Positions 10,733 to 47,212 of a stretch of DNA of 64,000 nucleotides are shown here, one piece after another. How positions within the stretch are numbered: the first letter of the stretch is position 1; each line of letters begins with the position of its first letter. This stretch comes from Pseudomonadota bacterium (GTDB lineage: Bacteria > Pseudomonadota > Alphaproteobacteria > Acetobacterales > Acetobacteraceae). The notes below the pieces were generated by a model. It saw nothing but the letters and a program-made list of their open reading frames with translations, did not search any database and had not been told where the DNA came from. The stretch covers positions 2,364-66,363 of the forward strand of contig JAKAWQ010000009.1 of the NCBI GenBank assembly GCA_021816925.1. The letters are read 5' to 3'. The translations under genes were made by a program, and so were the position numbers.

Positions 10733-11542
10733 TCAGCCCTTCACCGCACCCGCCGTCAGCCCGCTCACCAGGAATCGCCGCACCGCGAGCGAGAACACCA
10801 GCACCGGCAGCATCACCATCACGCCGCCGGCGGCGATCCGCCCCCACTGCCAGCCGACGTAGTTCATGAAGTTCACCACTGCTACCGGCGCGGTCATCGC
10901 ACGCGTCCGCGTCAGGATCAGCGCGAAGAAGAAATCGTTCCAGGAGAAAACGAAGCAGAGGATGGCCGTCGCCGCCAGTCCCGGCGCCGCGCTCGGCAGC
11001 ACCACCCGAACCAGCGCCTGCCAGAACCCCGCCCCGTCGATCCACGCCGCTTCCTCGAGCGCCCGTGGCGCCGTCTCGAAGAACGGCCGCATCAGCCACA
11101 CCACGAGCGAAAGATCGAACGTGAGATAGATGATGATGAGCCCGATCCGGGTATCGAGCAGCCCGAGATGCCGGTAGGCCAGAAAATACGGGATCGCGAA
11201 GGCGGTCGGCGGCGCGAGCCGGCTCGCCACGATCCAGAGGCTGAGCGCGTCCGACCGCCGCCGCATCCTGGCGAGCGCATAGGCCGCCGGCACGCCGAGC
11301 AGCATCGCCAGCACCGTCGAGGCAGTGCTGGTCACCGCGCTGTTCATGAACGAGCGCGTGAATTCCCCTTCCCACAACGCAGCGTAATTGGCGCCCGTCG
11401 GCCGGAACCAGAGATGCGGCGGGAATGCGAAGATCTGTGCGTTGGTCTGGAAGGACATCCTGACTAGCCACAGGAACGGCGCGAGCACGAGGAGCGAAAG
11501 TCCGATCGCAAGCGCGTAGAGGATCGCCTTGTTCGCCCTCAT
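10733..11542 (-). CDS. carbohydrate ABC transporter permease
   Basis: The track ORF (to 12388) is over-extended. The true start is the ATG at 11542, which overlaps the upstream stop as ATGA. The product (MRANKAILYALAIGL...) has an EAA-loop region (EAAWIDGAGFWQALVRVVLP). Confidence 0.9.
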   Translation of the reverse strand: MRANKAILYALAIGLSLLVLAPFLWLVRMSFQTNAQIFAFPPHLWFRPTGANYAALWEGEFTRSFMNSAVTSTASTVLAMLLGVPAAYALARMRRRSDALSLWIVASRLAPPTAFAIPYFLAYRHLGLLDTRIGLIIIYLTFDLSLVVWLMRPFFETAPRALEEAAWIDGAGFWQALVRVVLPSAAPGLAATAILCFVFSWNDFFFALILTRTRAMTAPVAVVNFMNYVGWQWGRIAAGGVMVMLPVLVFSLAVRRFLVSGLTAGAVKG

Positions 11543-12471
11543 TCGTCCGCTCCCCAACCCGTCAAGCGCACGATCAGCCAGCTCAGCGCCAGGCTGACCG
11601 TTACCAACACCACCGTGATAGCGCTCGCATACCCCACATAGGAAAAATTGAAGGCCTGCTCGAACGCATAGTAGTTCGTCACCTCCGTGACCGATCCCGG
11701 CCCACCGTCGGTCAAAAGATAGATCAGCGGAAATGCCTTGATGCTGTCGATCAGCCGAAAGAGGCCCGCCACCATCAGCGTGCCGCGGACATAAGGAAGC
11801 ACCACGTAAAGCGTCGCCTGCCAGATCCTCGCCCCGTCCACCCTCGCCGCGTCCAGGATCTCCTCCGGCACCGTCTGCAGTGCCGCCAGCACCATCAGCA
11901 TGGTCAGTGGAAACCACTCCCACGTGTCCGCCAGGATGATCGAAGGGAGCGCCCAGGTGGCACTCGTGATCGGCGTCGCCACCTTCCAGCCGAGCGCCTT
12001 GAACGCCCAGAAAGCCGGGCTGATGTCCGGCGTATAGAGCACCTTCCAGATGATCCCGACGACGATCGGCGGCAGCACCATCGGCACCAGGAAGAGGGTC
12101 CGCAGCGCCTTCAGCATCCCCGAGCGCAGGTTGAGGAGGAGCGCAAATCCGATCCCGATCAGCATCTGCAGCCCGACCGTCCAGAAGGAGAGCTTGGCCT
12201 GCACCCAGAGCGAATTGCCGAACCGCCCGTCCGAGAGCATCAGCCGGTAATTCAGAAGCGGCCGTGAGAAATTCCACGCCGTTGCCGGGTTCGTCGGATC
12301 GAGTGGCGTGAAGCTCGTCGCCACCAGATAAAGGATCGGCAGCAGCGTCACCGCCATCAGCACGCCGAGCGTGGGCGCCAGGCACCATACCAGGAACCGC
12401 CGTCGCTGCCGTGCCAGCCGCTCACGTTTCGCCGCGCGCGGGCGCGCCGCCGCCGCGACGGCGAGACTCAT
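11539..12471 (-). CDS. sugar ABC transporter permease
   Basis: 310 aa, multi-TM, with the binding-protein-dependent transport motif (...LDAARVDGARIWQATLYVVLP...). It overlaps both neighbouring genes by 4 nt. Confidence 0.9.
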   Translation of the reverse strand: MSLAVAAAARPRAAKRERLARQRRRFLVWCLAPTLGVLMAVTLLPILYLVATSFTPLDPTNPATAWNFSRPLLNYRLMLSDGRFGNSLWVQAKLSFWTVGLQMLIGIGFALLLNLRSGMLKALRTLFLVPMVLPPIVVGIIWKVLYTPDISPAFWAFKALGWKVATPITSATWALPSIILADTWEWFPLTMLMVLAALQTVPEEILDAARVDGARIWQATLYVVLPYVRGTLMVAGLFRLIDSIKAFPLIYLLTDGGPGSVTEVTNYYAFEQAFNFSYVGYASAITVVLVTVSLALSWLIVRLTGWGADE

Positions 12472-13814
12472 CGCCCGATCTTGTAGCCGCCCATGCGGAT
12501 CGCCTCGATGGCCTGCGCCTCGGCCTCCTTCATCGCCACCGGCGCCGTCTGCTGCCCGGTCGCGATCGCATCGATCGCACGGTTGATCTTGTCGCCCACC
12601 GCCGGGAACACGGGCACCGTCCGGTAGCGCATGTAGGCCCCGTCACCAAGCTGGTCCAGCACCTTGAGATAGAGCGCCGCCACGTCCTGCCCGTTCAGCG
12701 TCAGCGTCTCCTTGAAGACCTCGCTCTCGATCACCGAGCGGCGGCACACGCTCGGATAGCCGTGCTCCTTGACCACCCTGAGCAGCATCTCCTTCGATAG
12801 TGCCCATTTGATGAACTCCCAGGCCGCGCCCTTCTTCTTCGAGCCCTTGGGAATGCCGAAACCATGGCAGGCCACGCCCGGAAAATCCCCCGCCGGTCCG
12901 CCCGGCACCATGCCGTAGCGCACCGTCTTCGCAACCGTGCTGCTCGGATCCTTGGCGAGCGGCAGGCCCCAGGTGATGGAGTTGGTGCGCATGTTGGCTC
13001 GGCCGGAGAGCTGCGAGTGCAGTGCCTGGTCGTCGGTGAACGACAGCACGCCCGGAGGCCCGTATGTCTTCAGCAAACCCGCATACCACGCTGCGGACGC
13101 GACCGCAGGCGGTGTGTCGAGCAGCGGCATCAGGTCCTTCGGCGCGTCGCGGAACACGCGCCCGCCGCTGGCCTCGAGGTAGGGCGGCCAGTTCCAGTGG
13201 TGCAGCTTGTCTGCGGTCCAGGCGGCAACGCCCGCCTTGCCGTGCACAGCCGCGCACACCTTGAGCACCTCGTCCATCGTCGTCGGCAACGCAAGCCCGG
13301 CACGATCGATCAGGTCGGCCCGCCCCGCATAAAGCAGCATCGCACCCGCCTCGACGCCGTAGGCATAGGTATGGCCCTTCGCGTCGCGCATCGAGGCTTC
13401 GACGCCGGGAACGAAGTCCACCGGGTCCCACGAAGCCGGCGTCACGTTCGGATCCTTGGTGAATTCGTCGAGGTCCGTGACCCACCCGGCGCCGATCCAC
13501 TTTCCCTGATAAATGAAGGTGACGATGATGACGTCATAGCTCGAGCCGCCTGTGGAAAGCTCGAGATCCATCCTCTGGTTATAGATCGGGAAGGCTTCGA
13601 TATCGAACGCGACCTTGATCCCGGTTTCCTTCTCGAACTCCGGGAAGTAGGTGCTGAGATACTGGTGGAACGGCAGCGAGAACGCCGCCCCCCGGATCGT
13701 CGTTCCGGCGTATTTCGACGTCGCCTTGCCGAGCACCGCCGGTGCCGGCAGGAGCGCCGCCCCACCGGCAACGCCCGCAAGCATCCGCCGCCGCGTCACG
13801 CTCAGTCTTTGCAT
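12468..13814 (-). CDS. ABC transporter extracellular solute-binding protein (sugar type) with a Tat-like signal
   Basis: An internal ATG at 13814 is preceded by GGGAGGA. The N-terminus MQRLSVTRRRMLAGVAGGAALLPAPAVLG is a twin-arginine signal. Confidence 0.9.
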   Translation of the reverse strand: MQRLSVTRRRMLAGVAGGAALLPAPAVLGKATSKYAGTTIRGAAFSLPFHQYLSTYFPEFEKETGIKVAFDIEAFPIYNQRMDLELSTGGSSYDVIIVTFIYQGKWIGAGWVTDLDEFTKDPNVTPASWDPVDFVPGVEASMRDAKGHTYAYGVEAGAMLLYAGRADLIDRAGLALPTTMDEVLKVCAAVHGKAGVAAWTADKLHHWNWPPYLEASGGRVFRDAPKDLMPLLDTPPAVASAAWYAGLLKTYGPPGVLSFTDDQALHSQLSGRANMRTNSITWGLPLAKDPSSTVAKTVRYGMVPGGPAGDFPGVACHGFGIPKGSKKKGAAWEFIKWALSKEMLLRVVKEHGYPSVCRRSVIESEVFKETLTLNGQDVAALYLKVLDQLGDGAYMRYRTVPVFPAVGDKINRAIDAIATGQQTAPVAMKEAEAQAIEAIRMGGYKIGR

Positions 13815-39744: not shown

Positions 39745-40203
39745 TTACCGGCAGCAGCCCGAGATGCCAGGCTCACAGCACCCGCAACCCATGAGCGCAC
39801 AGCAATCCGTTGCACAGCAGCAATGGCAGCCGCAACCGTATCCGTGTTCACCGCGCCAGCCTTCACCGTGCGGCAACATCTCCGCCGCGCCCCCGAGCGC
39901 GCCCGCACTGCTCGCGAGCACCGCATTGAGGAGTTCGATGCCGAGTCTCACCGTCGTGCCGAGCCCCTCGCCGATTGTGCGCACCCCGCCCGCGCTTCCG
40001 CCGGCCGCCCCACCCGGCGCGCCGAACAGCGCGAGCGAGGGAGGCACCGCCCAACCCGGCATCGCGCCCGGCATCACGCCCCCGGGCGGCATCATCACCG
40101 GCATCATCATCGGTCCCGCTGCCGCCATGCGCGCCTTGTAGCGCGCGAATTCCGCCTCCGCTGCGCTCGAAGGACGTTCCGCACCACCATCCGATCCGCT
40201 CAT
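39745..40203 (-). CDS. novel-operon gene 13: Met/Pro-rich protein with an extreme C-terminal Cys cluster
   Basis: The ATG at 40203 is preceded by GGGAGGGGCGGAG. The product is 152 aa. It has a Met-rich segment (PMMMPVMMPPGGVMPGAMPG), a Gly/Leu amphipathic segment and the tail GCGCHCCCATDCCALMGCGCCEPGISGCCR (12 Cys in 30 aa). Confidence 0.75.
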   Translation of the reverse strand: MSGSDGGAERPSSAAEAEFARYKARMAAAGPMMMPVMMPPGGVMPGAMPGWAVPPSLALFGAPGGAAGGSAGGVRTIGEGLGTTVRLGIELLNAVLASSAGALGGAAEMLPHGEGWRGEHGYGCGCHCCCATDCCALMGCGCCEPGISGCCR

Positions 40204-40219
40204 CTCCGCCCCTCCCTGC

Positions 40220-40798
40220 TCAGCAGCCGCAAATGAAAATCTCGCACCAGCGCACGCGCGCCGTCGCGTTGAGCGCCATCGCGACGAGCTTCGCTCCCGG
40301 CTTGGTCGTGATCACGCCCTCCTTTACGCGATAGGGCGTGCCCGCATTCTCCTGCCGTGCCCATAGCATCGCCGTGCCTTCGCTGTCGGTCACTTCGATC
40401 AGCACGATGAAGGGTTGCGTCGTCACCGACGCCGCGTACTCCACCGAAAGCGAGACACAGCACCCCCCGCCGATGAAGGCGGTGGCGGTCCCCAGGTTCT
40501 GCGTCTGCAGCGCCTGCGGACTCACCTCCGCGCCCGTCGGCTGCACGCGCTCGAGCATCGCCTTCGTCATCGTCGAGAGTTGCCCCACGGCCGCGCCCGG
40601 GGTGGCTCCCGCCGTGTCCCCTTGCTTCGCCGCCGGCTGCACGAGCAGCTCCTTCGCCTCGCGCCTGCACTCCCGGCAGCCGCAGCGGCAGTCCCCGCTC
40701 GGCGCGCCGCAGCGCCGGCAATGCCCCGGTGACCCGTACGTCATCGGTGCCCAGGCGCGCGTGCCCGTGTAGCGGGCCGCCTCGAACGGTCTGAACAT
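40220..40798 (-). CDS. novel-operon gene 12: Cys-rich protein, paralogue of gene 11
   Basis: The ATG at 40798 is preceded by AAGGGAGAGG. The product is 192 aa. It has an N-terminal HCRRCGAPSGDCRCGCRECRRE, a beta-rich core (...VSLSVEYAASV...) and the C-terminus ...NATARVRWCEIFICGC. Confidence 0.75.
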   Translation of the reverse strand: MFRPFEAARYTGTRAWAPMTYGSPGHCRRCGAPSGDCRCGCRECRREAKELLVQPAAKQGDTAGATPGAAVGQLSTMTKAMLERVQPTGAEVSPQALQTQNLGTATAFIGGGCCVSLSVEYAASVTTQPFIVLIEVTDSEGTAMLWARQENAGTPYRVKEGVITTKPGAKLVAMALNATARVRWCEIFICGC

Positions 40799-40817
40799 CG
40801 CAGCCTCTCCCTTTACC

Positions 40818-41219
40818 TCAGCAGCATACCCGCTCGCACCAGCGCACGCGCGCCGTCACGTTCGTCACCGCAAGCGTCACGGTCGATCCCGCCGCCACCG
40901 CACCCAGCCCCTCGTACACATGGTAGCCGGCCGCCGGGCTCGGATCGCTCCAGGTGGTCGCCGTTCCTCCGCTCGAGACAATCGTCACCGTCACCGAGGG
41001 CGTCGTGGCTCCGCTCGCCACCGAATACTCCACCGTGAGCCGGCTTTCTCCCCGGCCGCCCACCATCCCCGAGTTCGTCGGCGCCTTTGCGTCCGCGTCA
41101 ATCTCCTCCACCACCGTCTGCTCGGCCGCGCCCGGCCAGGGCAACACCGGAACCCACATCACGGGATAGCAGCCGCACGGCGGCGGGCCGCCGCATGGCC
41201 TCGGCGAATGCGCGTACAT
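40818..41219 (-). CDS. novel-operon gene 11: Cys-rich protein, paralogue of gene 12
   Basis: The ATG at 41219 is preceded by AAGGAGAGGG. The product is 133 aa. It has an N-terminal PCGGPPPCGC, a core (...SRLTVEYSVAS...) and the C-terminus ...NVTARVRWCERVCC. Confidence 0.75.
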   Translation of the reverse strand: MYAHSPRPCGGPPPCGCYPVMWVPVLPWPGAAEQTVVEEIDADAKAPTNSGMVGGRGESRLTVEYSVASGATTPSVTVTIVSSGGTATTWSDPSPAAGYHVYEGLGAVAAGSTVTLAVTNVTARVRWCERVCC

Positions 41220-41231
41220 CGTCCCTCTCCT

Positions 41232-41432
41232 TCAGCTTTGCGGCGGCTTGCCCGGCGCCGCCTCCGGTTTCGTCAAATCCCGTACGATCCCGAGCACGTC
41301 GTTCACGATTCCGAAGCCTGCGCTGACGAACCCCGTCACACTGTCCGAGATCTTCTGCGGGATCTTGTTGTCGATCAGCGCGGCGGCGGCGTCGTGCACC
41401 AGCTCACCCACCGGTCCCAGGATCCGTGCCAT
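41232..41432 (-). CDS. novel-operon gene 10: small (66 aa) amphipathic protein
   Basis: The ATG at 41432 is preceded by GAGGGAGAAGG. The product is MARILGPVGELVHDAAAALIDNKIPQKISDSVTGFVSAGFGIVNDVLGIVRDL... Confidence 0.65.
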   Translation of the reverse strand: MARILGPVGELVHDAAAALIDNKIPQKISDSVTGFVSAGFGIVNDVLGIVRDLTKPEAAPGKPPQS

Positions 41433-41447
41433 CGCCTTCTCCCTCGC

Positions 41448-42884
41448 TCACGCCCGCGCAGGCGCGGCCATCGCCGCCACTTCGCGCTCGGCGAGCCGGA
41501 GCGCCTTGCTCGCCACTTCAAAGCCCCAGCCGAGCTGCGGCATCGGGTCGCAGAGCGCCGCCCCGCCGGCCCGCGTGAAGCTTTCCGCCGCCCTCCGCGC
41601 GAGACCCCGCTCGCCCTCGTGCCAACGCAAAACCGCTTGCCACGCTCCGAGATCCTTCGGAAACGCCCGCCGGAGCGCCGCCGGCGAAACCGCCAGACGC
41701 TGCGCCAGCACGCCGCTGAACACGCCCGCCGCGAAGGCGCGGAAGCCGGCATCTCCCGCCGTCAGCCGCCCGATCCGCTCCAGCACCAGCAGGCAGAAAT
41801 CGCGGATCGCCGGGTTCTTCGCGATCGTCAGGAAAAGCTCCGCCGTCTGCCAGTCCGCACCTGTTTCACTCTCCCAGAGGCGGCGGTACAGGGCCAGCGT
41901 GCGCCGGGAAAAATCCCCCGCTGCGAACGCCGCTTCCGCCGCCCGCGCCGCATAGAAGGCGCTCTCCATCGCCTTGTGGATGCCGCCGCCGTTCAGCGGA
42001 TCCGCCTGGTTCGCGGCATCCCCCACCAGCATCACCCGCTCATCGAAGATCTTGTCCGGCCGGAAGAACGCCGAAGAGCCGCCGGCAACTGCGCCCAACC
42101 GTTCCGCCCCAGAAAGAACCTCGGCAAGCTCACGCCTCAGAAATCGCCGGAACGTGGCGCCCGGCGCTTCGGGGAGCGGGAAAGCGGGGTCGAGCGCATA
42201 GCCGAGCCCGATATTCGCGAACCCCGTCTCGTCGGCGAAGAGCCACCCGTAGCCCGGAAAATAGGAGCGGTCGAAATAGACCTTGATCGGCGCGCCCTCG
42301 CATTTCACGCCGGTGAAATAGGCGCGTACCGAAACCGCCATCACGCCCGTCTTCAGCCGGTTGCCGATCGCCCGTGACACCGCGGAGGAAACGCCGTCCG
42401 CGCCGATCACGATGCGGCCGCGAAACTCCTCGCTTTTTCCGCCGCTCCTCGCGAACACGCTCGCGTATCCCCGCTCGCGTGACACGCCGCGCACCACCGG
42501 GCCGGCCCGGAATTGCGCGCCGTTGGCAAGTGCATTGCGAAGCAGGATATGGTCGAAGCGCCGCCGGTCGAGCAGCACGGCGAAGTCCGGATAGAGCGTG
42601 CGTTGCGGAAATCCCGCGCTCAGCGTTTTTCTTCCGTTGATGTAAAGATCGCACGCCTTGATGCAGCCCTTGGTCTCGGCCAGCACTTCCTCTGCGCAGC
42701 CGAGCCGGTCGAGCCAGGCGATCGCTTGCGGCGTGAGCCCGTCCCCGCACACCTTCTCGCGCGGGAAGTCCGCCTTGTCGAGAACGAGCACGTCCATCCC
42801 ACGACCCGCAAGAAAGCTCGCGGCCGCGGCCCCGCCCGGCCCCGCACCCACCACGATCACGTCATGCAGGGCCGCCGCGTTCAT
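41448..42884 (-). CDS. novel-operon gene 9: FAD-dependent geranylgeranyl-reductase family (MenJ-like) oxidoreductase with a roughly 100-aa C-terminal extension
   Basis: 478 aa. It has an FAD motif (VIVVGAGPGGAAAASFLAGRGMDVLVLDK) followed by FPREKVCGDGLTPQA, characteristic of the GGR family, then later GDAANQADPLNGGGI. The ATG overlaps the gene 8 stop as ATGA. Confidence 0.85.
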   Translation of the reverse strand: MNAAALHDVIVVGAGPGGAAAASFLAGRGMDVLVLDKADFPREKVCGDGLTPQAIAWLDRLGCAEEVLAETKGCIKACDLYINGRKTLSAGFPQRTLYPDFAVLLDRRRFDHILLRNALANGAQFRAGPVVRGVSRERGYASVFARSGGKSEEFRGRIVIGADGVSSAVSRAIGNRLKTGVMAVSVRAYFTGVKCEGAPIKVYFDRSYFPGYGWLFADETGFANIGLGYALDPAFPLPEAPGATFRRFLRRELAEVLSGAERLGAVAGGSSAFFRPDKIFDERVMLVGDAANQADPLNGGGIHKAMESAFYAARAAEAAFAAGDFSRRTLALYRRLWESETGADWQTAELFLTIAKNPAIRDFCLLVLERIGRLTAGDAGFRAFAAGVFSGVLAQRLAVSPAALRRAFPKDLGAWQAVLRWHEGERGLARRAAESFTRAGGAALCDPMPQLGWGFEVASKALRLAEREVAAMAAPARA

Positions 42885-43549
42885 CCGCTCGCCTCCACCG
42901 AAAGGAGCACAGGAATGCGTATCGTCCCCTCGCCCAGCACCACTACGCTGCCCCGATAGAGATCGGGCGGCAGTGCGTCGGGAATCATTCCTTCCAGCAA
43001 AAATTTCTCGAAATCCATCGGCGCGATCGCGATCTCCGGCGGCGTGACGCCGAGCGCGCCCTCGGGCAAAGTCGCGCCGGTCCGCTCACCCGCGAACGCC
43101 TCGACGAGAAGGCGCACGGGCTTCGCCGCCTCGGCCGATTCGTTATTGATCGAGAATGAAATGCGCACCGCACCGCCGGGCCGGAGCGGCAGGCGGTTGG
43201 TGATGCCGTAGGAGGGCGTCGCCGCGGCCGCGCCGGGCGCCATCGCGGCCAGAGGCCCCGGAGCCGCCGCCCCAGGTGCAACGCCCGGCGCCGCCGGCGG
43301 TTCCTCCGCTTGAGGGCTCAGCATCCGCTCGATGATCTTCGTCTGCGCCGCACTGCCGATCGTGCCGAGCATGGTAAGACCGAGCGAGAGCCCCGCCTCC
43401 GCGAGATCGAGCCCGCGCGCGAGCAACTCCCCGAACCGGTCGAGCCGCGCCTTGAGGTCAAGCGTGTCCTCCGGCGGCTGCGCTGGTGCCGCCTCGGACG
43501 GCGCCGCTCCGCCGGGTGCGGCCGCGCTGCCGTTGCCCCGCTCAGCCAC
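42881..43549 (-). CDS. novel-operon gene 8: hypothetical protein (amphipathic N-region, Pro/Ala linker, beta-sandwich-like C-domain)
   Basis: 222 aa with a GTG start at 43549 that overlaps the end of gene 7 by 8 nt. The C-terminal segment ...AVRISFSINNESAEAAKPVRLLVEAF...YRGSVVVLGEGTIRIPVLLSVE looks like an Ig/CARDB-type beta-sandwich (inference). Confidence 0.6.
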   Translation of the reverse strand: MAERGNGSAAAPGGAAPSEAAPAQPPEDTLDLKARLDRFGELLARGLDLAEAGLSLGLTMLGTIGSAAQTKIIERMLSPQAEEPPAAPGVAPGAAAPGPLAAMAPGAAAATPSYGITNRLPLRPGGAVRISFSINNESAEAAKPVRLLVEAFAGERTGATLPEGALGVTPPEIAIAPMDFEKFLLEGMIPDALPPDLYRGSVVVLGEGTIRIPVLLSVEASG

Positions 43550-43778
43550 GGCACCGGCACCCGTAGCAGGGCGGCTCGCAGCGGATGCACCATTCCTCGT
43601 GCATGCACGGGCGGGCCGGACATTCCAGGCCCCACACGATTCCCTCCGCCGTCTCGCGGATCATGCGCATCTCCCGGCGCGCAAGATGCACCGCCATATG
43701 CCCGAGCCGGACCGCGAGCACCGGCAACACCCCCGCCAGAAGCGCGAGCCCATCCGTCGCCGGCGGCCGACGCCGCAT
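43542..43778 (-). CDS. novel-operon gene 7: small (78 aa) single-TM protein with a Cys-rich C-terminus
   Basis: The ATG at 43778 is preceded by GGGAGG and lies 1 nt after the gene 6 stop. It has a hydrophobic helix (LALLAGVLPVLAV) and the tail ECPARPCMHEEWCIRCEPPCYGCRCRG (7 Cys). It is hidden inside the longer track ORF 43542..44099. Confidence 0.6.
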   Translation of the reverse strand: MRRRPPATDGLALLAGVLPVLAVRLGHMAVHLARREMRMIRETAEGIVWGLECPARPCMHEEWCIRCEPPCYGCRCRG

Positions 43779-43779
43779 C

Positions 43780-44385
43780 TCAGCCTCCCGCCCGATAGGC
43801 AAAGCCGGGCGGGCCGCAGCGCAGCGCGCGCGCCGGCGCCACCGGCACCGCCCGCGCACACCCCTCCTCGAGCCGGCTCGGAATTGCCGGATTGCCGAGG
43901 GCCGCCACATCGGCAAAGCTCCTCTCGTGCGCATGCGATTCCTCGCGCCGCGCGCACTCCCGCGGCACCACCCGCGTCCGGCCCGCGATCTCCACCCGCA
44001 GCACCTCGAAGCCCAGGAGCCGCGCCCGCGCCGTGTATTGCGAAGGCAGATCGAACACCTGATGAATGCCGATCGCGACCGGAGGGATCCGCGTGACATC
44101 GATCTCCACCCCCGGCACCCGGCTCACCGAGAGATTGACCATGGGCAAGCGCGTCACGTTCAGTTGCTCGACATGCAGCGGATCGATTTCCCGCACCCGA
44201 TCGACTGAGAGCGATTCGATCAGCAGCGGCTCGATCTGGTTCAGCTCCTTCACATGCACCGCAACCGGGGCGACCTTCTCGACCGCCGCGATCGTCACCG
44301 GCGCGATGTTGTCCACTTCCTCGATCGTGACCGGATTGAGCGTGATCGGATCGACGCCCGTGACCTGTTTGATATTGACGTCCAC
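43780..44385 (-). CDS. novel-operon gene 6: protein with a periodic V/I-x-P repeat region
   Basis: The GTG at 44385 is preceded by AAGGGAG. The product is 201 aa. Residues about 8-110 form roughly 9 degenerate 11-13-residue units (VDPITLNPVTIEE / VDNIAPVTIAA / VEKVAPVAVHVKE / LNQIEPLLIES ...). Confidence 0.7.
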   Translation of the reverse strand: MDVNIKQVTGVDPITLNPVTIEEVDNIAPVTIAAVEKVAPVAVHVKELNQIEPLLIESLSVDRVREIDPLHVEQLNVTRLPMVNLSVSRVPGVEIDVTRIPPVAIGIHQVFDLPSQYTARARLLGFEVLRVEIAGRTRVVPRECARREESHAHERSFADVAALGNPAIPSRLEEGCARAVPVAPARALRCGPPGFAYRAGG

Positions 44386-44398
44386 GTCTTTTCTCCCT

Positions 44399-45094
44399 TC
44401 AGAGTCCCGGCCAGACGTAATTGAGTACGATCACCTTCGCGGTGTCCGCCACCTGCGGCATGCCCGGGATTTGCACCGTCACACTGTGCTCGGCCGTGCC
44501 GCCGCTCGGCGGCGGCCGATAGAGGAACCAGACTTCGCTGCCCCCCTGCACCGCCCCGTCCACGAGCCAGATCACGCCCGTAGCAGGGCTGTTCCTCGGA
44601 AACGCCCGGAACAGCTGCATCTTGTTCCGCTCGTCGATATACGCATTGTCGTCACCCGAGGCGTAGTAGAGCGTTCGGCTCTTCGGCCAGAGCTCGATCG
44701 TCGGCGCGGGCACGGGCAACGGTCCCACGCCGATGAGCGTCACGAACGCGAACGCCTTGCGCAGCGGATCCGCCCGCGCCGTCGCCACCACGAGATCGGT
44801 GGTGCCGCTGGCAAAGAGCCCCTTGTCCGGCGCCCGATAGAGCCCCGTCTGATCGATCGTGCCGGCCCCCGGCGATCCGTCCGGGGCGATCACCGCGAAG
44901 TTCACGCCGGTATCGGCGTTGCACACGAGAGCCCGGAAGCGGATCTCCGTGTTCGCCCGATCCGTCCAGCGCTCGTCACGGAAATAGAGCTCTGCCTCCG
45001 CCGGCCGAATCTCCACCTCCACGCGGTGCCGCCACACGCCCTCGCGGAGGATACGCCAGTCCTCCCCTCGGCCCGCGTGCACCCGATGCCTCAT
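44399..45094 (-). CDS. novel-operon gene 5: hypothetical protein with an Ig-like segment
   Basis: 231 aa. The ATG overlaps the gene 4 stop as ATGA. The segment ...VNFAVIAPDGSPGAGTIDQTGLYRAPD... resembles bacterial Ig-like (Big) domain signatures. There is no signal peptide. Confidence 0.7.
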   Translation of the reverse strand: MRHRVHAGRGEDWRILREGVWRHRVEVEIRPAEAELYFRDERWTDRANTEIRFRALVCNADTGVNFAVIAPDGSPGAGTIDQTGLYRAPDKGLFASGTTDLVVATARADPLRKAFAFVTLIGVGPLPVPAPTIELWPKSRTLYYASGDDNAYIDERNKMQLFRAFPRNSPATGVIWLVDGAVQGGSEVWFLYRPPPSGGTAEHSVTVQIPGMPQVADTAKVIVLNYVWPGL

Positions 45095-45492
45095 TCCTCG
45101 AACGCCCCCTCGACCGCGGCCTTGAGCAGCCGGCCCGGCACCTCGCCCGTGAGATCGACCTCAACCGTCCCCCGCGCGCTCCCTTCCAGCGCGCATCCGC
45201 CCTCGCCGTCGCCGATCCTGCCCTCCACCCCGACACCGTGGGCGCGGATCGTTGCATTGGCCGGCTTGATATGAATGCGGAACGGACCCACCGATCCCGC
45301 CGCCACGCCCCGCGAGGGTGACAGAAACGGAATCCGCATCAGCAAAGGAATCGCCGCCACCTCGGCCTGAATCGTTCCTGTTGCGATTTCAAGCGCACCC
45401 TCCCCGTTCAGCGCGAAGGAAAGCGGCGCCATCTGCGTGCGCAGCCGGAACTCCGGCGCGCCGGCAAGCGTCACGTGCGCGGCGAATTTCAT
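45091..45492 (-). CDS. novel-operon gene 4: hypothetical protein
   Basis: 133 aa. The ATG overlaps the gene 3 stop as ATGA. I recognise no family. Confidence 0.65.
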   Translation of the reverse strand: MKFAAHVTLAGAPEFRLRTQMAPLSFALNGEGALEIATGTIQAEVAAIPLLMRIPFLSPSRGVAAGSVGPFRIHIKPANATIRAHGVGVEGRIGDGEGGCALEGSARGTVEVDLTGEVPGRLLKAAVEGAFEE

Positions 45493-45683
45493 GGCGCCTT
45501 CTCCTGCGCCTCTTCTCCTCCCTCCGGATAGACGCGCCGCGCGAGGTCGGTGAACATCGCATCCACCGTCTGGTTCAACCGTTCGAACCCGTCCAGCGCC
45601 TTGGCGATCTCCTCGCAGTTCTGCCCCTGCACCTCGAAGTGCACCATCGGCCCGAGGCGGATCGAAAGATTGATGCGCGCCAT
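45489..45683 (-). CDS. novel-operon gene 3: small (64 aa) hypothetical protein
   Basis: The ATG at 45683 is preceded by GGGGAGA. The product is MARINLSIRLGPMVHFEVQGQNCEEIAKALDGFERLNQTVDAMFTDLARRVYP... It is hidden in the longer track ORF 45489..46025. Confidence 0.6.
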   Translation of the reverse strand: MARINLSIRLGPMVHFEVQGQNCEEIAKALDGFERLNQTVDAMFTDLARRVYPEGGEEAQEKAP

Positions 45684-45700
45684 TGTCCCCGTCTCCCCGC

Positions 45701-46291
45701 TCAGCCGTTGCGCCGCCCGCGCCCGGTCTTCACCTGCTGCTCGGCCTCGCGCACCCGCCCGATCAGCAGTTCGAGCGAGGTCAGCACGGTGTCCAGCACC
45801 TCCCGCTCGCGCTGCCCGAGCGCCCGATAGAAGCGCGCCAGCTCCGCCCCGATCTTCCGCCCCTCCTCCGTCTTCCGGTAATCCTTGCCCCGCTCCTGCA
45901 AGACGCTCCCGAACTGATCCAGAACCGAAACCAGCCCGAACAGGAGGTCCGGCCCGGCCTTCGCCTCCGACTTCACCTCCTCGTCCCTCGCCTGGCTCTC
46001 CGGCATCGGCCTGCACCGCCTGCATCTCTTGATCCCGTCCTCAGGCCCGATCCGCCAGAGCCCGTAGGAGGCGGAGCACGCATCCTCGGGAATGGCCCTG
46101 CAGCCGCGCCGGTGCACCACGCCGCGCACGGCATCGAACCGGTAGGGCGCCGCCTCGGTCTCCTCGCGGTTGTCGATCCGAAGGAGCGTGTTCCATTCGC
46201 CGCGCCCCCGTTCCCGATAGAGCGCCTGGATGGCGATCGCCGCCTGCTCGACGAGCGGCCGCCCGCCTTCCCCGCTCATTCCCCACTGCAT
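45701..46291 (-). CDS. novel-operon gene 2: hypothetical protein with a 4-Cys (zinc-ribbon-like) motif and a helical C-terminal half
   Basis: 196 aa. The ATG directly abuts the gene 1 stop (TGAATG). It has CRAIPEDAC...24 aa...CRRC, then a charged helical region (...KDYRKTEEGRKIGAELARFYRALGQREREVLD...). Confidence 0.65.
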   Translation of the reverse strand: MQWGMSGEGGRPLVEQAAIAIQALYRERGRGEWNTLLRIDNREETEAAPYRFDAVRGVVHRRGCRAIPEDACSASYGLWRIGPEDGIKRCRRCRPMPESQARDEEVKSEAKAGPDLLFGLVSVLDQFGSVLQERGKDYRKTEEGRKIGAELARFYRALGQREREVLDTVLTSLELLIGRVREAEQQVKTGRGRRNG

Positions 46292-47212
46292 TCATTCATA
46301 GACATCCCACGCCCCACCGTCCTGCCGCTGCCGGCGATGCTTCTCCAGCCGGGTCGCGTAGTAGCGCCCGAGGAAGCCGAGCAAGAGCGAGCGCCCCGGC
46401 CCCGGCTCGAGACTCGCCTCGATCCGCCGGCGATGCCTCGCGTAGATACGACCGAGTGCGCGCTCCGGAGCATTGAGCCGGTTCATGTATGTCACCCGCC
46501 CCTCCTTGCGGTCGGCGTGGCAGTCGCCGTGATCGTCGATGAACATGATCAGGGCGCCCGCGCTGAAGAGCCCCGCAAGATACGAAAGGGCAACATTTTG
46601 CACAAGGAATATCGCCAGCACCAGGATCGCGTGTCCGCTCCGGTTGCGTGCCGAGCGGCGAAGCACCGCAAGTTCCCGCGCCCGCGTGAGACCCGTCACC
46701 CGCGCCGGCTCGAGCCGCAGCATCACGTCCTCCGCCTGCGCCGCGTGCAGGTGAACGATCGCCTGGCGAAGCAGCGGCGCGAGCACGTCGCGCTCGATGA
46801 ACATGGAGGCCACGATCACGTAGAACAGCCGCTCGCGCGCGTTTCGGATCTCGAACCAGCCGGTTGCCAGCAGCCGCTCGAACCGCGCGAGATACTCGCG
46901 CGCCGCGCTCTCGCCGAAGTCGTCGAGGAAGCTGTCCGCCAGGAAGCAGCAGCAGCCGAACAGGATGGCAAGCCGCCGCCGGCCGGCATCGAAGGTTTCA
47001 CCCGCAATCTCCGTGCAGGCGTGCCCGACCAGCGCCATCTTCGCGCTGAGTTCCAGCATCTTGCGGTATTCCGGCCCGTTCGCGGCCGCCAGTGCCGGGT
47101 AATAGGCCCCGACCAGCGGCGCGAGAACTTCCTTCACCTCGCCGCGATAGCGCCGCGAGAGTTCTTCGAGGCGAGCCGCGTCGGCCCCTTCGCCCGCCGC
47201 CAACCCGGCCAT
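46292..47212 (-). CDS. novel-operon gene 1: helical protein with two Asp-rich motifs (isoprenoid-synthase-like; inference)
   Basis: The likely start is the ATG at 47212, with GGAG 5 nt upstream; the track extends to 47374. The product is 306 aa. It has DSFLDD at residues 93-98 (46919-46936) and DDHGDCHAD at residues 226-234 (46511-46537), about 133 residues apart. Confidence 0.65.
   Translation of the reverse strand: MAGLAAGEGADAARLEELSRRYRGEVKEVLAPLVGAYYPALAAANGPEYRKMLELSAKMALVGHACTEIAGETFDAGRRRLAILFGCCCFLADSFLDDFGESAAREYLARFERLLATGWFEIRNARERLFYVIVASMFIERDVLAPLLRQAIVHLHAAQAEDVMLRLEPARVTGLTRARELAVLRRSARNRSGHAILVLAIFLVQNVALSYLAGLFSAGALIMFIDDHGDCHADRKEGRVTYMNRLNAPERALGRIYARHRRRIEASLEPGPGRSLLLGFLGRYYATRLEKHRRQRQDGGAWDVYE

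Follow-up and report, generated by a model that had tools for sequence, protein, structure and literature searches.

Gene 6, the sixth of 13 collinear minus-strand genes in a 64,000-nucleotide stretch of an Acetobacteraceae contig (the window), encodes the long form of an unnamed family of proteins that combine a repeat array with a beta-hairpin. Comparison of the sequences indicates that the repeats in this family are real and under strong selection. The reading that we favor, with a probability of roughly 0.4, is that gene 6 acts as a subunit of an assembly and that its repeats gain order solely through beta-pairing between chains, either among its own copies or with the neighboring beta-sandwich proteins. 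Gene 6 combines enzyme-level conservation across at least four or five phyla with an unnamed repeat type and no structural relative, and proteins of this kind, conserved and unfoldable by current prediction, usually bear load within some larger machine.

The original prediction placed about nine degenerate, proline-marked repeats at positions 44056-44364 of the window, which correspond to residues 8-110 of gene 6, and this is confirmed: nine Pro-centered units lie there with a spacing of 10-16 residues. The prolines of gene 6 fall at residues 13, 18, 29, 40, 53, 69, 81, 91, 101/102 and 114, and the coefficient of variation of the gaps between them, 0.25, is equalled by 0.06% of random placements. 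For the motif counts we used as a null 5000 composition-preserving shuffles of gene 6. The motif [VL]xx[IV]xP[VL]x[IV] occurs 5 times where 0.04 are expected, a count that 0/5000 shuffles reach; a looser Pro-centered hexamer occurs 9 times (1.1 expected, shuffle maximum 6 in the 5000), and a second unit type, phi-x-phi-[ST]-R-phi-P-x-phi (phi, hydrophobic residue), occurs 3 times (0.002 expected). In Smith-Waterman self-alignment the highest off-diagonal score is 97, compared with 31 +/- 6.5 in shuffles. Motif counts and self-score lie beyond the shuffles, such even Pro spacing is rare among random placements, and the claim of repeats, which was offered to be judged by such statistics, stands. 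The further claim that the periodicity is kept at the level of the protein and not of the DNA is borne out as well, as Tandem Repeats Finder and a direct-repeat search detected no tandem or direct DNA repeat beneath the protein pattern. In the vicinity of gene 6 the DNA has a single tandem repeat, a weak 9-nucleotide CCGGCGCCA array at 43833-43862 (3.2 copies, score 30), which is located within the variable Ala/Pro-rich C-terminal linker and is unconnected with the protein repeats.

The units of gene 6 are heterogeneous, six being about 11 residues long and three or four being 10 residues long. The six longer ones follow the pattern phi-x-P-phi-x-phi (VDPITL, LNPVTI, IAPVTI, VAPVAV, IEPLLI and IDPLHV), and three of the 10-residue units follow phi-x-V-[ST]-R-phi-P-x-V (LNVTRLPMV, LSVSRVPGV and IDVTRIPPV). 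Pairwise likeness among the core units is not significant and self-alignment of the family profile with hhalign gives a weak off-diagonal signal (P about 0.014), so the core is best described as an old, diverged repeat; each core unit in the gene 6 family has gained its own conserved identity. The periodic signal of the core consists of the Pro spacing and a hydrophobic pattern, phi.phi..phi..phi.., with a hydrophobic period of 2.6-2.7 across the family and a core power of 126 against a shuffle 99th percentile of 95.

Homologs of gene 6 number 173, every one of them labelled "hypothetical" and none with a Pfam domain, and an exhaustive HMMER search of 1.84 billion representative proteins recovered only 72 clusters, including those of a short sister family described below. 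In an alignment of 26 diverse long-family members (A1), the core residues P40, H44, K46, E47, N49, P53, P69, T78, P81, P91, P101, P102 and Q109 are invariant and R60, D62, D68 and N84 are conserved at 90% or more. The consensus frequency is 0.61-0.85 per core unit. The long-family motif C-terminal to the hairpin has R147, E148, S156, F157, V160, A161, G164, P166 and I168 invariant, and P193 and G200 of the C-terminal tail are conserved at 90% or more. Gene 6 carries every hallmark of the long form: the VH[IVL]KELN anchor, the 72-residue core with five or six invariant prolines, the SxY-hairpin-PR(D/E)C arrangement and the HERSF...GNPxIP motif. Over 41 genome loci its median identity (51.5%) is close to that of the operon enzymes, gene 1 (55%) and gene 9 (58%), and above that of genes 2, 4, 8 and 10-13 (35-46%).

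Comparison of the homologs divides the array into two parts. In 105/106 family members, VHxKELN and the SxY at the opening of the hairpin delimit a stretch of 72 residues, and the six units that follow the first three of gene 6 form a fixed core. The stretch N-terminal to VHxKELN varies between 27 and 55 residues and between 1 and 6 Pro units, with 11-residue length steps being common. From this variation in length and units among orthologs we conclude that units one to three of gene 6 are repeats whose copy number truly varies, and such variation among orthologs is confined to these N-terminal units.

The short sister family appeared as the weakest genuine matches of the 1.84-billion search and consists of proteins of 92-195 residues. 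Its units are very regular decapeptides such as IGITELPKLE and FAVKELPRIE, with the consensus [IVFL]-[AG..]-[VIL]-[KT]-E-[LIV]-P-x-[IVL]-x and 3-10 units per protein. Its C-terminus, VRAHxPxxYxxGLSxFGxExxxxSLCGExQVITEKYVPRxxExC, aligns with residues ~100-148 of gene 6, and the proteins stop directly past the hairpin and lack the long-family motif of residues 146-170. A dedicated search gave 86 members, which the gene 6 profile matches down to an E value of 1.5e-15. The first short-family unit, DNIHVKELP, corresponds to the invariant VHVKELN of gene 6, and a position-specific scoring matrix of the short-family unit picks only VHVKELNQIE and IDVTRIPPVA in gene 6, the remaining units being too diverged. 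Because the number of decapeptides varies in this independent family, the array is a true tandem repeat that expands and contracts; the single 11-residue steps among gene 6 orthologs and the 3-10 near-identical decapeptides of the sister family together make the units modular. The genome of the window has no second copy, in the short form, of the gene. Three apparent matches were rejected as spurious and compositional: P0181, an E/K-rich protein of 6837 residues, and P0183 and P0186, which matched by way of SVSVRQCP low-complexity repeats. In the short family the Cys of LCGE, on the second strand of the hairpin, is nearly invariant (alignments A2 and A3), and a second Cys lies 1-3 residues before the C-terminus (ExC, ExCR); the two are at residues 126 and 144 in the member P0197. 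Gene 6 retains only C144 (PRECARRE), which is not invariant.

The composition of the gene 6 repeat region (40% V/I/L, 10% Pro, 2.9% Gly and no aromatic residues) is that of a buried-type sequence, unlike a disordered linker, and its mean hydropathy of 0.546 lies above the charge-hydropathy disorder boundary of 0.438. We ran AlphaFold2 on single chains, with alignments of 26 sequences for gene 6 and 88 for P0197, a sister-family protein with near-perfect decapeptides. The gene 6 model has a mean predicted local distance difference test score (pLDDT) of 50, with residues 1-101 below 50 and without secondary structure, and hairpin strands at 104-123 and 126-139 with a pLDDT of about 80-88. In P0197 the repeats (residues 34-85) are likewise below 50 and the hairpin scores 84-95. 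The hairpin is therefore the only part that is predicted with confidence in the models of both families. A Foldseek comparison of the P0197 model with the PDB returned long hairpins only, none of them significant, and neither family alignment, used as a profile against PDB sequences, identified a significant relative. A hydrophobic, tightly constrained sequence for which no monomer fold is predicted points to an obligate oligomer or complex, and V/I/L-rich, buried-type composition together with repeats below a pLDDT of 50 is what one would expect of it.

The genomic neighborhood of gene 6 gives this suggestion a context. The order of genes 1 to 13 recurs in 41 genome loci. According to the record labels, the organisms that carry this island include Acetobacteraceae and other Alphaproteobacteria, Paraburkholderia panacisoli, Caulobacter sp. 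BK020, Nitrospira, Methylomirabilis, Solirubrobacterales and others. Among the carriers in culture are Caulobacter sp. BK020, Paraburkholderia panacisoli DCY113 and Rhodospirillales bacterium URHD0017. In the window's own family the island occurs in 4/151 genomes, which makes it accessory and patchy, and gene 6 occurs in 3/143 sampled genera. Gene 8 is collinear with gene 6 in 39/41 long-family loci, and gene 7, whose ATG comes 1 nucleotide past the gene 6 stop, was found by tblastn in just 4/41. Among the homologs of gene 8, residues ~30-75 form a strongly conserved helix-like N-terminal segment (LDLAEAGLSLGLT...), and a Pro/Ala-rich linker joins this segment to the immunoglobulin-like (Ig-like) domain (ITNRLPLxPG...FSINND...MDFEKFVL...IPV). 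Gene 9 scores 197 bits against the geranylgeranyl reductase (GGR) family TIGR02032 (cut-off 158.8) and also matches QhpG (1e-30) and the LodB/GoxB maturases. A tandem GGR paralogue was observed right after gene 9 in L021 (~11040-12496) and also, between genes 9 and 10, in L010, L014, L015, L018, L024, L026 and L040; its FPRxKVCGDG motif is replaced by PPRDTVRSDG, the presumed catalytic Cys being gone, and the paralogue may serve as a partner that acts differently or has no catalytic activity.

The short family has its own neighborhood. In 24 of the 25 loci with enough downstream sequence, exactly three paralogous genes, B, C and D, come directly after its repeat gene, and these have weak, sub-threshold matches to Ig-like folds (FixG_C, fn3_5). 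Both hmmsearch (6e-9) and hhalign (96.6% and 95.3%) identify gene 8 as a homolog of C and D, and the D genes have the same layout as gene 8. No kinship was detectable between the B gene and gene 5 (hhalign probability <1%); gene 8 alone is related to the B, C and D genes. An Ig-like gene of the gene 8 or B-C-D type thus stands downstream of the repeat gene in 39/41 long and 24/25 short loci. Homologs of gene 9 (E about 1e-70) adjoin the short module in 23 metagenome loci, and a GGR is present at 9/29 eligible short-module loci. The linkage of repeat protein, gene-8-type beta-sandwich and GGR in two gene arrangements is the strongest functional clue that we have. The structural role in an assembly that had been proposed for the repeats fits this conserved neighborhood. 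Two Acetobacteraceae metagenome contigs (L046:11228-13030 and L047:11228-13030) also have a class I polyhydroxyalkanoate (PHA) synthase gene (PhaC_N plus Abhydrolase_1) on the same strand after the four-gene short module, which hints at a link to storage-granule biology.

Our favored reading can be put as a mechanism. Gene 6 would be a non-enzymatic subunit of a multi-protein assembly made by the 13-gene, isoprenoid-linked operon, with the C-terminal amphipathic beta-hairpin as its folded anchor or oligomerization element and nine or ten V/I/L-rich, Pro-punctuated units of 10-11 residues as an N-terminal array. Each unit would be a short beta-strand module; within a single chain it would have no way to bury its hydrophobic residues, and it would become ordered by pairing with other chains, these being either further gene 6 copies, in a fiber or sheet, or Ig-like proteins of the gene 8 family. 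One gene 6 molecule could in this way tie together several subunits of an assembly linked to prenyl-chain chemistry, and the variable number of N-terminal units may set its reach or valency. The long-family motif HERSF...GNPAIPS and the C-terminal GxPRFxY may dock partners unique to the larger island. Gene 6 and the short family mark two related modules, each with a repeat protein and Ig-like proteins and often a prenyl reductase, and this core of three or four genes offers a small and tractable way into the 13-gene island.

Several points weigh against this reading. The inter-chain beta-pairing, the partnership with gene 8 and the structural role are all things that we infer, and a shallow alignment can equally cause low AlphaFold2 confidence, the effective number of sequences (Neff) being 2.3 for the long family. 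The 3-10 repeats of the short family stand against a constant three beta-sandwich genes, which makes a stoichiometry of one unit per partner unlikely. The many conserved polar residues of the core (H44, K46, E47, N49, R60, D62, D68, T78, N84 and Q109) could indicate ligand or cofactor binding instead of scaffolding. Of the words sampled from the window's DNA (whole operon, 39745-47212), 96-100% occur in each of four metagenome runs from one study of mine drainage, and metatranscriptomes from the same study contain no contigs of the operon, which is uninformative.

A bolder form of the idea, which we consider rather unlikely, is that the array represents a new fibrous or sheet architecture that exists only in the assembled state and is registered by the hairpin, and that together with the gene-8-type proteins it frames an undescribed cytoplasmic structure associated with isoprenoids. 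This would be a protein-coated body or lattice around the products of the operon enzymes, including the geranylgeranyl reductase, and it would occur sporadically in Alphaproteobacteria, Burkholderiales, Nitrospira, Methylomirabilis and Actinobacteria. If the repeats do make up an oligomeric beta architecture that is new, it would add a new class to the tandem-repeat folds, and if they organize an isoprenoid-linked structure, bacteria would have a type of subcellular assembly not seen before.

The first alternative to inter-chain ordering is the one originally suggested, a self-contained beta-solenoid or stacked-hairpin scaffold, in which one chain alone would wind into a parallel beta-helix or beta-roll, with each unit stacked on the last as a coil or half-coil and the hairpin as the cap. 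The regular spacing of the prolines, the phi.phi..phi..phi.. pattern and the dominance of beta-branched residues in the composition would suit such a fold, as would the sister family, whose decapeptides are highly regular and share a conserved K/T-E pair and which may have hairpin-like sequences at either end. AlphaFold2 usually recovers solenoids, however, and here it predicted none, giving the repeats of gene 6 and P0197 no regular structure, although a negative outcome of this kind is no proof. A unit of 10-11 residues is also too short for a closed coil, the shortest known coil being that of TmAFP, which has 12 residues and requires disulfides. Coils made of two units predict length steps of 20-22 residues, whereas single 11-residue steps are common among the orthologs, and this opposes multi-unit coils in general. 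Conservation extends to nearly all positions, polar ones included, and is not restricted to an inward-facing set, and no solenoid family in Pfam or the PDB matched. We therefore regard an autonomous solenoid as quite unlikely.

A second alternative is that the repeats and the hairpin form an amphipathic beta belt on or around a body of the isoprenoid product of the operon, with the Ig-like proteins as an outer coat; the gas-facing hairpin of GvpA and the beta-belt of ApoB are analogs. This draws on the linkage of both repeat-protein families to GGR homologs, on a composition rich in V/I/L and devoid of aromatic residues, on the long and amphipathic predicted hairpin, on the conserved amphipathic N-terminal helix of gene 8 and on the PHA synthase gene after the short module in the two Acetobacteraceae loci. 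We know of no lipid body in the organisms that carry the island, however, and the hydrophobic period of 2.6-2.7 differs from the period of 2 of a simple amphipathic strand. Strict conservation of polar residues would be unusual for a surface that contacts only lipid, many short-module loci (all but the 9 of the 29 eligible) are without a GGR, and Foldseek returned GvpA (7r1c) with no significance (E about 7). A lipid-contacting belt thus seems quite improbable to us.

In a third alternative the repeats are modification sites, or the segments of a multi-core precursor, for the GGR-like flavoprotein or other operon enzymes. Some flavoproteins with the GGR fold do modify proteins, gene 9 also scores on QhpG and the LodB/GoxB maturases, invariant polar residues recur in the core and sister-family proteins differ in how many near-identical units they carry. 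Gene 9 fits far better as a true GGR, its score exceeding the cut-off of that family, and neither a protease nor a cyclase or transporter is encoded in the modules; at many loci the module has no GGR, and the conserved 35-residue hairpin and fixed 72-residue core are unlike precursor peptides, all of which leaves a substrate role very unlikely. Finally, the genome is 67-70% GC, which enriches Val, Ala, Pro and Arg, and the lack of significant likeness among core units and the weak profile self-alignment might suggest that a Val/Pro-rich stretch merely looks periodic, but this is refuted by the shuffles, which never attain the observed motif counts or self-score, and by the family comparisons, in which Pro positions are invariant across phyla, whole units are gained and lost among orthologs and a distant sister family has the same architecture with clean decapeptides.

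We also compared gene 6 with known families and systems. Scans of gene 6 and its neighbors with Pfam, NCBIfam and PADLOC gave no match except the GGR of gene 9, and in gene 6 they detected no catalytic family signature, signal peptide or defense-system match. The statement that the periodicity belongs to no named repeat family is upheld by the searches of Pfam, NCBIfam and the PDB, which were without a significant match. The pentapeptide repeat (PF00805), whose Rfr fold has tandem A(D/N)LXX with a 5-residue period and four units per coil, was rejected: there was no Pfam match at E <= 0.1, the Pro spacing is 10-16 and the hydrophobic period 2.6-2.7. The hexapeptide left-handed beta-helix (PF00132), with [LIV]-G-x4 hexads and 18 residues per coil, gave no Pfam or NCBIfam match, and Gly is at 2.9% in the gene 6 repeats. 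The Pfam entry PF25296, "Decapeptide repeat region", has the 10-residue period of the sister family, and we rejected it as a family assignment: gene 6 does not match it, 3/33 sister-family proteins match weakly and far below the curated cut-off of 45 bits (best E = 4e-4; P0184 14.5 bits), and its best match in the window's genome, 12.4 bits, is not at gene 6.

The nearest analogs in logic appear to be the oligomer-dependent fiber repeats and the multivalent compartment scaffolds. The triple beta-spiral of the adenovirus fiber shaft and reovirus sigma-1 has 15-residue repeats with Pro or Gly at the turn and a C-terminal registration domain. Like gene 6 it has short pseudo-repeats, patterned hydrophobics, conserved Pro (or Gly) and a variable number of repeats, and its array folds solely as an oligomer registered by the folded C-terminal domain, so that monomer prediction fails. 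The gene 6 model, with its repeats and folded C-terminal element, has an architecture that would be compatible with such fiber repeats; the differences are that its period is 10-11 and not 15, that no sequence, profile or fold match was found and that gene 6 is a cytoplasmic protein from a bacterial operon with isoprenoid enzymes. The multivalent scaffolds of bacterial compartments (CsoS2 and the cargo-loading domains of encapsulins) share with gene 6 their repeated short motifs, low predicted order, variable motif number and an operon with candidate shell-like proteins, which in the gene 6 operon would be the Ig-like ones. The gene 6 repeats, in contrast, are hydrophobic (40% V/I/L), lie above the order/disorder boundary, are conserved at the level of enzymes and accompany a predicted beta-hairpin, and there is no sequence similarity. 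CsoS2, which has N/M/C repeats with [IV][ST]G motifs, and GvpC, which has 33-residue repeats, were rejected as families, having no Pfam or NCBIfam match and a different period and composition.

Other likenesses are more limited. The RTX beta-roll (GGxGxDxUx) also has very short units, of 9 residues, in variable number, two of which make one turn of a two-sheet solenoid, but gene 6 has no HemolysinCabind match, the Gly-Gly/Asp calcium motif is missing from every unit, there is no secretion signal or secretion system, and AlphaFold2 predicted no roll. The hydrophobic spacing of gene 6, phi..phi.phi..phi.., can be rotated onto the 11-residue leucine-rich repeat segment LxxLxLxxNxL; a leucine-rich coil, however, needs an additional variable segment of 9-18 residues (20-30 per repeat) whereas the whole period of gene 6 is 10-11, gene 6 has no Asn ladder, and we rejected this family as well, with no Pfam match and with LRRC8 leucine-rich domains (E = 1.6 and 7.3, not significant) as the only PDB profile matches. 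GvpA resembles gene 6 in having a long two-stranded amphipathic hairpin as the conserved element of a small protein, but the Foldseek match to 7r1c (E = 7.1) is not significant, gene 6 has no flanking helices and the operon has no gvp genes. The literature searched contained no description of the gene 6 family or the island, and the sequence family, the repeat type and the genomic context are all without a described counterpart in it and in the libraries searched.

Coordinates (window numbering) of gene 6, its parts and its immediate neighbors
Feature	Position	Strand	Description	Basis
Gene 6 coding sequence	43780..44385	minus	201 aa, GTG start, TGA stop 43780-43782	open reading frame list and sequence
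Shine-Dalgarno AGGGAG	44393..44398	minus	7-8 nt 5' of gene 6 GTG	direct sequence reading
Gene 5 stop	44399-44401	minus	13 nt before gene 6 GTG	
N-terminal units of gene 6	44284..44364	minus	residues 8-34; VTGVDPITL / NPVTIEE / VDNIAPVTIAA	whole-unit indels, alignment A1
Fixed repeat core of gene 6	44044..44283	minus	residues 35-114	conservation and constant length across family
Core units of gene 6			VEKVAPVAVHVKE, LNQIEPLLIES, LSVDR+VREIDPLHVEQ, LNVTRLPMVN, LSVSRVPGVE, IDVTRIPPVA, IGIHQVFDLP	
Long amphipathic beta-hairpin of gene 6	43969..44076	minus	residues 104-139; common to short sister family	AlphaFold2 prediction
Long-family motif RRExSHxHERSFxxVAAxGNPAIPS	43876..43950	minus	residues 146-170; not in short family	
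Conserved C-terminal tail L-x-x-G-x-P-R/G-F-x-Y ... G	43783..43824	minus	residues 188-201; follows variable linker	alignment A1
Gene 7	43542..43778	minus	small Cys-rich open reading frame between genes 6 and 8	sequence and translation
Gene 8	42881..43549	minus	N-terminal amphipathic helix and Ig-like beta-sandwich	
Gene 9	41448..42884	minus	geranylgeranyl-reductase-family flavoprotein	

Some minor observations concern the gene calls and the host. A metagenome protein of 397 residues (P0147) joins the C-terminal half of a gene 5 homolog to a full gene 6 homolog in one frame; the fusion is probably a frameshift or gene-calling artifact, and it bears out that genes 5 and 6 are neighbors. In L043 (10241-12226), a called gene of 661 residues combines beta-sandwich proteins of the C and D type with a DUF2092 (LolA-like) region, inside which lies a signal-peptide-like segment; the gene caller has probably run two or three genes together. 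The window's DNA is also represented in sediment metagenomes (59% of sampled words), and the host, which derives from metagenomes of mine drainage, is probably an acidophilic Acetobacteraceae known from a metagenome-assembled genome.

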